Of a stretch of 64,000 nucleotides of DNA, positions 10,783 through 11,703 are shown piece after piece. Numbering within the stretch: the first letter of the stretch is position 1; the number at the start of each line of letters is the position of its first letter. A program made the translations under genes and the position numbers. The DNA is from an uncultured Planctomycetaceae bacterium (GTDB lineage Bacteria; Planctomycetota; Planctomycetia; Planctomycetales; Planctomycetaceae). A model generated the notes under the pieces. That model had not been told where the DNA came from and made no database searches. It saw only the letters and a program-made list of their open reading frames with translations. Where the stretch lies: contig CAWFAK010000008.1 in NCBI GenBank assembly GCA_963813715.1, positions 480,001 through 544,000 of the forward strand, written 5' to 3'.

Positions 10783-11703
10783 TCAGTTTCCTTGCTGCAA
10801 GCGGTCTAGCAGTTTTTGAATCCACTGCTCTCGCTTGGCTTTAGCTCGTTCCTTGGCCGCGTATTCCGTCACGGCGTTGTAAAGATCGTCCATGCTCCAA
10901 AGCTGGTCAACGACTCCCGCAGCCATCGCCGGGGTGCATTTCAACGAGCCATGAACCCGGCAGAAGTTGTACGTGGCGACGTGAATCGCCGTTGCTGCCG
11001 CAAGGTTCTCCAGCTTCTTTGAGAAGCCAAGAGCCAGCCGGGTGAACCGCTTCATAAAGGTGCGAATCGTGAGGTTGTTCCGCTCTACGTGACTGGTGCA
11101 TATCGTCGCGAGGTTGCCTATCCCGTTGACGTTTATCCGTTCCGTCCCGGCCAACGTCGGCGGAGCGTAGCGGCCCGTGTTGTCGGAATACTGCTTTATC
11201 AAAACGCCATGCCGAACCGCGCCGTGGAAGTGCCGACGAATCGCCGGCTGGTAGGGGCCAAAGCCGTCAGTCGAAAGCTGGGGCCGATCTTCTCCCAACG
11301 TCGCTGGCGTGACCAAGCGCCCCTTGAGGTCCCGAATGAAGGTGTCCGTCGTTTCCCAAGTGCGATTGCCGATCGCGAACGTGACAACCAGCTTGCTTTC
11401 GGTGTCCAAGGCGACGAATAAGTACTGGTCGCCGATTCGCGCCGTGTCGAGATGGCGCTTCTTGGCGTGGCCCTCCTTGATGCCGCAAAACGTCCAAATC
11501 TCGTCGAGCTGGACGTGATCGAGGCTGAGGTTCACCAGCTTGGCGTCGAGGTATTGGCGACACTGATTGCCGAAGCGGACGACGATCCGCGTGATGGTCT
11601 TCTTTTCGATCCCGGTCAACCGCATGGTCGAGCGGATCGAGTTACCTTCGGACAGCAGGCGCAGGACTTGGATCTGCTTGTCGCGAGACAGTAAATTGGC
11701 CAC
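10783..11703 (-). CDS. IS1-family DDE transposase (single ORF, N-terminal HTH)
   Basis: EGNSIRSTMRLTG HTH, QLDEIWTF, LSTDG, TSHVERNNLTIR, RFTRLALGFSKK, YNFCRVH, TPAMAAG; likely GTG start at 11703 (ORF open to 11724). Confidence 0.92.
   Translation of the reverse strand: MANLLSRDKQIQVLRLLSEGNSIRSTMRLTGIEKKTITRIVVRFGNQCRQYLDAKLVNLSLDHVQLDEIWTFCGIKEGHAKKRHLDTARIGDQYLFVALDTESKLVVTFAIGNRTWETTDTFIRDLKGRLVTPATLGEDRPQLSTDGFGPYQPAIRRHFHGAVRHGVLIKQYSDNTGRYAPPTLAGTERINVNGIGNLATICTSHVERNNLTIRTFMKRFTRLALGFSKKLENLAAATAIHVATYNFCRVHGSLKCTPAMAAGVVDQLWSMDDLYNAVTEYAAKERAKAKREQWIQKLLDRLQQGN

Follow-up and report, generated by a model that had tools for sequence, protein, structure and literature searches.

In Streptomyces, the tRNA-Leu(UAA) encoded by bldA gates regulatory genes that carry TTA codons, which are rare in the GC-rich genome, and the tRNAs encoded by phages match phage codon usage. 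Insertion sequences (ISs) are known to limit themselves by frameshifting, antisense RNA, inhibitor proteins, and cis preference; classical IS1 makes its InsA and InsAB′ proteins through a programmed −1 frameshift. We know of no IS that is controlled through a tRNA that it carries itself. Here we describe an IS1-family element from an uncultured Planctomycetaceae bacterium, wherein the transposase gene contains a cluster of ATA codons and is preceded by a tRNA-like gene with the matching anticodon UAU. By this arrangement, the amount of working transposase is probably controlled through a tRNA private to the element. The element lies in a 64,000-nucleotide stretch, hereafter called the window, of GenBank assembly GCA_963813715.1 (contig CAWFAK010000008.1, abbreviated C8; C8:480001-544000), a genome of 7.49 Mb with 63% G+C.

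The tRNA-like RNA resembles the allo-tRNA(UAU) group described by Mukai et al. (Nucleic Acids Res 2017, PMC5389517) in its 12-bp acceptor branch, long variable arm, Ser-like features, and UAU anticodon. Unlike the UAU forms in the text of that paper, which are listed among 8/4 types, the window type is drawn as 9/3. Our copies come mostly from Planctomycetota records, unlike the allo-tRNA sources named there and in a review (PMC7609411), which are Clostridia, Proteobacteria, and Acidobacteria. Neither source connects allo-tRNA(UAU) with a transposase family or with AUA codons, and the text of PMC5389517 uses “AUA” once. Three conserved motifs of the clade studied here (21, 14, and 12 nt) are not in the supplementary table of that paper, and PMC7590224 mentions neither transposons nor UAU. 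Our literature search found no paper that joins the terms “allo-tRNA” and “transposase”, and related searches, judged by title or by the start of the abstract, gave nothing relevant.

The proposed system is like bldA in that a codon rare in GC-rich genomes occurs in a particular gene, whose translation would be gated by one dedicated tRNA. Indeed, the codon is rare in this host and concentrated in its target, and the dedicated, matching tRNA covaries with it (in one switch only). It is unlike bldA in that a single mobile element carries both the tRNA and its target, this tRNA is of a non-canonical type, the codons form a cluster within the catalytic domain, and the host has its own way of reading the codon. 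As with classical IS1, the element belongs to the IS1 family and translation, in the stretch that follows the DNA-binding part, would be the step at which transposase output is controlled; unlike classical IS1, it has a single open reading frame (ORF), and the proposed control is a codon/tRNA pair rather than a frameshift. Finally, like the phage tRNAs, the mobile element would bring a tRNA for codons that the host reads poorly, whereas here the matching codon is restricted to about 40 codons of one gene and is avoided elsewhere in that gene. This confinement points to control rather than general supply. The features on which the argument depends are as follows.

10741 to 13662, minus strand: the whole IS, 2922 bp, with the transposase gene, the tRNA-like gene, and three passenger ORFs on the opposite strand.
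10783 to 11703, minus strand: IS1-family, single-ORF DDE transposase of 306 aa, assigned by Pfam and predicted fold.
11101 to 11199, minus strand: the ATA patch of the transposase gene, with codons 176, 197, 202, and 208.
11836 to 11927, minus strand: the tRNA-like gene, drawn 9/3, supported by a covariance model (97.9 bits) and by covariation.
11889 to 11891, minus strand: the anticodon UAU within the tRNA-like gene, in the loop CUUAUAA.

The initial annotation of this DNA, made from the sequence alone, had reported that four of the 18 Ile codons of the transposase gene are ATA, that these are consecutive and fall within 33 codons, and that they lie between the STDG and VERNN motifs of the DDE triad. 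All three observations hold. The ORF (10783..11724, minus strand) has eight ATC, six ATT, and four ATA codons; the latter are Ile codons 12 to 15 of the gene (11197-11199, 11134-11136, 11119-11121, and 11101-11103), and they are flanked by STDG at residues 151-154 and HVERNN at residues 212-217. The open frame extends to a TTG at 11724, but translation likely begins at 11703, with a GTG that lines up with the Met of relatives; this choice leaves the ATA count unchanged.

ATA, which the annotation held to be rare in GC-rich genomes, is rare in this one, accounting for 1120 of 65691 Ile codons (1.7%) in 3270 ORFs selected for at least 250 codons, G+C at third codon positions (GC3) above 0.70, and G+C at second positions (GC2) below 0.55. 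At this rate, the binomial probability of at least four ATA codons among 18 is 2e-4, and only one of the 3270 ORFs, the transposase gene of the window, has four ATA codons within 33. The annotation had raised two caveats. The first was that ATA also occurs in host genes, with two near the start of the aminotransferase gene at 51124; within the first 40 codons of this class I/II aminotransferase gene, one ATA was seen, at codon 39. The second, that acquired genes often use more ATA, holds for mobile genes: 30 frames around five rve and 25 DDE_Tnp_1 matches in the same genome, with near-identical copies not merged, have 25 ATA among 384 Ile codons (6.5%), or 15 of 354 when one weak match is removed. 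Thus, the enrichment stands against the genome but is only modest against other mobile genes (Fisher p = 0.033). These gene-level figures are those on which an explanation by chance, or by the usual codon bias of a horizontally acquired gene, would have to rely. We find such an explanation scarcely credible given the uniqueness of the cluster among the 3270 ORFs, together with the site-specific conservation, Ile specificity, and replication in a later set that are described below.

We regard comparison across relatives as the decisive evidence for the ATA patch. Loci were drawn from reference genomes (27), from the 17 further genomes that gave a match when 401 of the phylum were searched (20 more), from the best 80 of 498 metagenome relatives, and later from viral contigs (29). 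Codons were mapped to the window numbering via tblastn, with approximate positions in the indel-rich region 180-200, and the patch was defined as codons 170-210. The 131 copies collapse to 122 unique ones. Class counts exclude four in which the alignment covers fewer than 35 of the 41 patch positions, and the tree omits three sequences for which fewer than 220 residues could be aligned. The window gene falls in clade A, which has 60 tips and a support of 0.80. ATA codons as a share of Ile codons are distributed as follows.

Clade A, UAU tRNA-like gene present (33 sequences): 89 of 143 in the patch (62%), 4 of 417 outside (1.0%).
Clade A, tRNA-like gene absent over at least 700 nt upstream (13 sequences): 23 of 54 in the patch, 1 of 124 outside.
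Sister clade B without locus L110 (19 sequences): 10 of 84 in the patch, 6 of 245 outside.
Remaining sequences (39): 19 of 106 in the patch, 38 of 403 outside.

Every one of the 33 UAU-bearing genes has at least one ATA codon in the patch, and 29 have at least two. When the window gene is excluded, 58 of the 59 remaining clade A genes have at least one; 1-5 are kept, with a mean of 2.3. The codons recur most often at column 208 (49 of 60), followed by 202 (32 of 41) and 176 (22 of 46), and they are kept across relatives that are 45-90% identical. At the conserved clade A Ile columns outside the patch (30, 44, 76, 97, and 220), by comparison, ATA is never used (0 of 218), while each of these columns exhibits 7-12 flips between ATC and ATT. 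A-ending codons of the eight four-fold families make up 7.7% in the patch vs 9.5% outside, and GC3 is 0.83 in the patch vs 0.78 outside. The excess is therefore specific to Ile and does not reflect a patch that is AT-rich or made of rare codons in general.

The viral contigs were fetched after the patch had been fixed and thus serve as a replication. All five UAU-bearing genes of this set have patch ATA codons, with 8 of 23 Ile codons in the patch vs 1 of 44 outside (p = 5e-4), whereas the 19 genes without the tRNA-like gene have 10 of 60 vs 9 of 198. One UAU-bearing member of this set, L162, is noteworthy because at its GC3 of 0.30 ATA should be common throughout; the codon is found at 4 of 8 Ile positions in the patch vs 0 of 12 outside (p = 0.014). 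In another genome, G403, the copies with a tRNA-like gene have patch ATA codons (L146 at 176, 185, 202, and 208; L143 at 175, 191, and 199), and three distant family members without the gene have none.

Synonymous constraint can stem from nucleotide motifs, and we therefore considered whether the conserved A residues might belong to a DNA or RNA signal rather than reflect codon choice, for instance to an internal promoter, a structured RNA, or a site for binding. All four ATA codons of the window are preceded by G, as such a motif might require. However, the positions of ATA shift between lineages (176, 191, 197, 199, 202, 203, and 208) and the flanking bases vary, complementarity to the anticodon loop was not seen by eye beyond the triplet, and the GTA codons of L110, described next, occupy partly different positions. 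A signal at the nucleotide level thus seems very improbable.

The anticodon is also conserved, even though every stem shows compensatory changes. Of 38 strong matches to the covariance model (33 parsed by script and five read from the alignment), all but two carry UAU (36 of 38), the exceptions being L110, with UAC, and L141, with UUA. All four later strong matches also have UAU, for a total of 40 of 42, and a search with the model over 151 genomes of the order of G403 gave matches in two genomes only, both with UAU. The UAC exception is informative. In L110, the anticodon loop UUUACAU caps a perfect 5-bp stem, the gene has no ATA codons, and its patch Ile codons are ATC. Its Val codons, by contrast, are GTA at four of four patch positions (190, 192, 199, and 203) vs 0 of 14 outside (p = 3e-4), and the GTA codons at 190 and 192 sit where a relative, L084, has Val. 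Hence, a change of UAU to UAC accompanied by replacement of ATA with GTA is found in nature in the form of the swap that one would construct in the laboratory. In a further locus, L115, the allo-type gene is lost but for its last bases, another irregular tRNA with UAU lies about 560 nt upstream, and the transposase gene retains ATA at 199, 202, and 208.

The tRNA-like gene has a 9-bp acceptor stem (GGAAGGCGU/ACGCCUUCC), a 3-bp T stem, a long variable arm, and a G discriminator, and CCA is not encoded. Its minimum-energy fold is not clearly better than those of shuffled sequences (z = −1.55), and the structure rests on covariation instead. In a first alignment of the nine copies from which the covariance model was built, 14 of 28 pairs exhibit two-sided changes, a number reached by 0 of 500 shuffles. 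A model-fitted alignment of 29 distinct rows, which leans towards the model, has two-sided changes in 22 of 28 pairs and 90.3% of cells paired vs 40-56% with partners slid. Helix 1 is 81.5% paired in the first alignment and 91.9% in the later one, with two-sided changes in eight of its nine pairs; pairing in the T stem is 100%, and all seven pairs of the variable-arm helix have two-sided changes. Covariation of pair 14:96 favors the 9/3 drawing. ARAGORN calls six relatives (L062, L070, L071, L161, L162, and L179) tRNA-Ile(tat). The window copy itself lacks the finder call, the 7/5 cloverleaf, and the A discriminator of a canonical tRNA-Ile, the last of which is found in the tRNA-Ile of this genome.

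The association with the transposase gene is regular. The genome has four strong model matches and four copies of the transposase family (the window copy and three on contig C15), with one match upstream of every copy, and among relatives the tRNA-like gene is always on the transposase strand. The gap from the tRNA-like gene to the start of the transposase match is about 350-415 nt in 33 of 38 measured cases and 255, 264, or 458 nt in three others. Two short-spacer relatives have gaps of 99 and 123 nt, and the window copy is of the same form, with 132 nt to the GTG. This 132-nt gap has no promoter-like site on that strand and includes a T-rich stretch after the tRNA-like gene. In the paralogue L001a, the two genes are separated by a spacer, absent from the window copy, that holds a promoter-like TTGACA-16-TATGAT site (11 of 12 matches), and the other two C15 paralogues carry hexamers like −35 and −10 elements at the same place, as judged by eye from the alignment. 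The co-transcription of the two genes that the initial annotation assumed is only a possibility.

The transposase matches Pfam DDE_Tnp_IS1 (PF03400) with 38.8 bits against a cut-off of 24.1 and also matches N-terminal helix-turn-helix models. Its best NCBIfam match is transpos_IS1, with a score of 59.7 that is below the cut-off of 100, and the element is therefore a distant IS1 member. We found one ORF and no separate InsA frame, rather than the two overlapping frames with a −1 frameshift of classical IS1; the protein presumably belongs to the single-ORF subgroup of the family. The catalytic triad (D74, D153, and E214) is invariant in 61 sequences. A search by sequence found no solved structure. 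The AlphaFold model (predicted local distance difference test score, pLDDT, of 93.7) has the fold of a DDE transposase/integrase, with ISCth4, TnsB, and integrases as the top matches. In this model, ATA-encoded residues are placed in both strands of a β-hairpin (model residues 164-172 and 184-193) and at the Ile three residues ahead of the helix that bears the catalytic Glu.

The proposal in the initial annotation that the patch is functionally matched to the neighboring UAU is supported by the site-specific conservation of ATA, its specificity for Ile, the conservation of UAU, and the switch in L110. We consider it likely that codon and anticodon are truly coupled at the ribosome in one direction or another, and the locus is best read as a variant of rare-codon/tRNA control between a transposase and its own non-canonical tRNA. 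Whether the RNA would enable translation of the patch or mis-decode it cannot be told from the sequence. We lean, at somewhat less than an even chance, to the first of these. The ATA cluster would then be a selected decoding checkpoint matched to the tRNA-like RNA of the element itself. In these GC-rich hosts, AUA is the rarest of the Ile codons, and a close run of AUA codons could slow or stall ribosomes within the catalytic domain, in a stretch of roughly 40 codons that follows the second Asp of the triad and precedes its Glu. The UAU RNA, encoded upstream, would decode these codons and relieve the stall, such that full-length transposase would be made only when the tRNA-like gene is expressed. 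This scheme supposes that the RNA carries the cognate amino acid and that the patch would be slow without it. A kinetic effect of this kind is suggested because the codons are tightly clustered. In addition, homologs outside clade A (59 sequences) mostly have Ile or Val at the constant hot spots (208, 47 Ile and 7 Val; 199, 29 Ile and 14 Val; 176, 26 Ile and 21 Val), and L084 has Val where L110 has GTA. Standard decoding therefore fits.

A coupling of codon and anticodon would give allo-tRNA(UAU) a concrete, testable function in the matched codon patch of an adjoining transposase. It would also constitute a new kind of self-control by a mobile element, exerted via a tRNA that the IS carries. 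Furthermore, a naturally orthogonal tRNA/codon pair for GC-rich bacteria would be of interest to genetic-code engineering.

The opposite direction is that the tRNA-like RNA reads AUA but harms the product, either by misincorporation of Ser or by non-productive binding to the A site. Seryl-tRNA synthetase (SerRS) ignores the anticodon, and charging by this enzyme would put Ser in place of Ile in the β-hairpin and beside the catalytic helix. More copies of the element would yield more tRNA-like RNA and a smaller active share of transposase, and the damaged protein, if it still bound DNA, could act as an inhibitor. The suggestion in the initial annotation that the RNA may be serylated is well grounded in the sequence. 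Both the acceptor end (GGAAGG../..CCUUCC or GGAGAG../..CUCUCC) and the G discriminator are like those of the tRNA-Ser of this genome, whereas its tRNA-Ile and tRNA-Leu differ, and the next-best matches of the covariance model in the genome are true tRNA-Ser genes. Together with the long variable arm, these features would favor charging with Ser over the cognate charging that a helper needs. A Ser-charged scaffold would also explain how the anticodon could change to UAC without any other change. Site 208, where ATA is most constant, is the only near-invariant Ile of the family, and Ser there should hurt; at 197 and 202, sequences outside clade A have polar or variable residues. Thus, Ser might be tolerated at 197 and 202 and would not be at 208. 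Other allo-tRNAs insert Ser at non-Ser codons in Escherichia coli (PMC5389517 and PMC7609411), and two of the six allo-tRNA(UAU) variants tried there were lethal to this host (PMC5389517).

On the other hand, the amber-suppressor versions of these six variants were inactive in E. coli, without Ser insertion at amber codons (PMC5389517), and such inactivity is expected for a helper if charging depends on the anticodon. Misincorporation does not need clustering within 40 codons, yet ATA never occurs at five other conserved Ile columns, including three that belong to the catalytic domain. Escape by mutation of ATA to ATC would be easy, yet ATA is kept and is regained at new positions. We therefore regard a harmful reading of AUA as possible but unlikely. 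We are equally doubtful of its boldest form, wherein a Ser-charged RNA brings about programmed mistranslation of AUA (or GUA) to yield a catalytically dead, DNA-binding transposase as a means of copy-number control. If this Ser-charged recoding form were true, it would be the first function for the abundant allo-tRNA(UAU) class.

Several observations weigh against control of the transposase by the element's own tRNA, in whichever direction. We infer from sequence that the RNA is expressed, processed, charged, and put to use by ribosomes; no source of RNA was listed among public runs. ARAGORN finds no tRNA genes in the window, and Rfam gives no tRNA match to the window copy at E values up to 10, only matches at chance level. 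The T loop of this copy, GUCGGAA, is unusual, and the loop-closing pair is broken in 7 of 9 and 12 of 29 copies. The host can read AUA by its own means, with a PP-loop gene of the TilS type and three genes for tRNA-CAU. The Fisher values given for relatives treat related sequences as independent and so overstate the evidence. L110 is the sole anticodon switch known and comes from one metagenome contig, and L141, with its UUA loop, has three patch ATA codons and no in-frame TAA. Lastly, comparison of copies with and without the tRNA-like gene, as proposed at the outset, gave a divided result: all of the 33 with the gene have patch ATA codons, but so do 12 of the 13 clade A copies without it nearby. 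A tRNA-like gene in cis is therefore not required to retain the codons, although supply in trans from other copies could possibly serve such loci. Both features map to essentially one clade, and their co-occurrence is therefore close to one evolutionary event. The weight of the evidence for coupling is carried by long-term maintenance and the single switch.

These last points are what one would expect if the patch were a programmed slow stretch read by the tRNA-Ile of the host, for instance to allow folding of the N-terminal part or binding in cis, and if the tRNA-like RNA acted elsewhere, for instance in RNA processing or stability, with ancestry alone joining the two. The weaker excess outside clade A, among the remaining sequences tabulated above, also fits, as does the finding that other tRNAs of the family lack a matching codon cluster, namely those of L006 (UAG), L012 (CCA), L013 and L177 (ACU), L098 (UGC), and L102 (GGC), which is likewise a point against coupling. 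However, separate roles would leave unexplained the joint switch of anticodon and codon in L110, the retention of UAU in 40 of 42 strong matches despite covariation of the stems, and the second odd UAU tRNA upstream in L115. We consider such independence improbable and continue to favor coupling, with the tRNA-like RNA tentatively as helper.

Other branches of the family carry different tRNAs or tRNA-like genes beside the transposase gene, mostly upstream on the same strand; the tRNA of L011 lies just downstream, and that of L184 is on the opposite strand. This set (L006, L011, L012, L013, L098, L102, L115, L177, and L184) includes a Leu-like UAG, a Trp CCA, an unusual ACU in L011, L013, and L177, UGC and GGC on one common scaffold, an ACC and UAU pair, and a Ser-like UUA with encoded CCA; none of them is accompanied by a codon cluster that matches. 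L024, with GAU, has ATT at its three patch Ile codons, and its eight ATA codons all fall outside; at p = 0.055, this is no more than suggestive. A tie to odd tRNAs seems to extend across the entire transposase family.

The ends of the IS in the window, and the passenger genes that it carries, are defined by the following features.

10741 to 10759, plus strand: terminal inverted repeat at the transposase end (GGTAATGGGGTACTTTGAA), found by pattern match.
13644 to 13662, minus strand: terminal inverted repeat at the far end (GGTAGTGGGGGCGTTTGAA), found by pattern match.
10732 to 10740, no strand assigned: target-site duplication CGGTCCGGA, copy 1, within a genomic repeat like repetitive extragenic palindromes (REP-like).
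13663 to 13671, no strand assigned: target-site duplication CGGTCCGGA, copy 2, a direct repeat of 9 bp.
12211 to 12930, plus strand: passenger ORF of 239 aa, of no known family, divergent from the tRNA-like gene.
12998 to 13613, plus strand: two small paralogous passenger ORFs of 87 and 95 aa, of no known family, both starting MSDEPKK.

A general repeat search did not reveal the ends. The pattern GGTARTGGGGNNNTTTGAA has exactly two matches in the window, inverted with respect to each other, at 10741 and 13662; these mark imperfect inverted repeats of 19 bp, both bordered by the 9-bp sequence CGGTCCGGA. The IS is therefore 2922 bp and is inserted in the REP-like repeat. IS1 target-site duplications are 8-9 bp, and both the inverted repeats and the short duplication of an IS1 element are thus present here. 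The tRNA-like gene is inside the IS, between the transposase gene and the three opposite-strand ORFs. Genome G403 has two identical copies of a 3359-bp relative with inverted repeats, 7-bp duplications, and the tRNA-like gene inside. The possibility that the tRNA-like gene forms the left end of the element, considered since homology between copies begins there, is ruled out by the G403 copies and by the ends of the window IS.

One of the two identical G403 copies is split in its passenger region by a 1228-bp insertion (L153 4403-5630) with a 6-bp overlap at the junctions, which resembles a nested mobile element. In the window, the two small passenger ORFs (12998-13261 and 13326-13613) also have a hydrophobic stretch in common, and their region has several short DNA matches in L001, a locus that corresponds to contig C15:100000-118000. 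There, at about 7233-15473, three diverged modules of tRNA-like and transposase genes occur within 8 kb in the same orientation, separated by differing opposite-strand ORFs. Where they align, their proteins are 74%, 75%, and 54-57% identical to the window protein; the third carries a frameshift. Diverged copies also have in common a leader of about 110 nt, conserved ahead of the transposase start (window 11700-11815; L001 7620-7738), which opens with the hairpin AAAACCCCGG...CCGGGGCG.

The REP-like repeat surrounds the IS (window 10368-10740 and 13663-13750) in units that contain CCGGACCGGATTCAGACTTCG, and further copies are found on contigs C5, C7, C12, C15, and C17. It also adjoins related IS copies in the metagenome loci L062 and L065 and may be a preferred target of the IS.

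Elsewhere on the contig of the window, ARAGORN calls a “tRNA-Stop(tta)” at C8:182792-182863, about 1.2 kb upstream of and on the same strand as a DDE_Tnp_1 frame (C8:181166-181564) that holds three clustered ATA codons. This may be a second transposon with an irregular tRNA. A “tRNA-Ile(tat)” called at C8:418596-418667, whose T loop is non-canonical and whose acceptor stem contains a mismatch, is either a false call or another irregular UAU tRNA. Finally, 32 tRNA genes are found within 4.7 kb of contig C7 (C7:914718-919431), an array that may be a tRNA island or derive from a phage.

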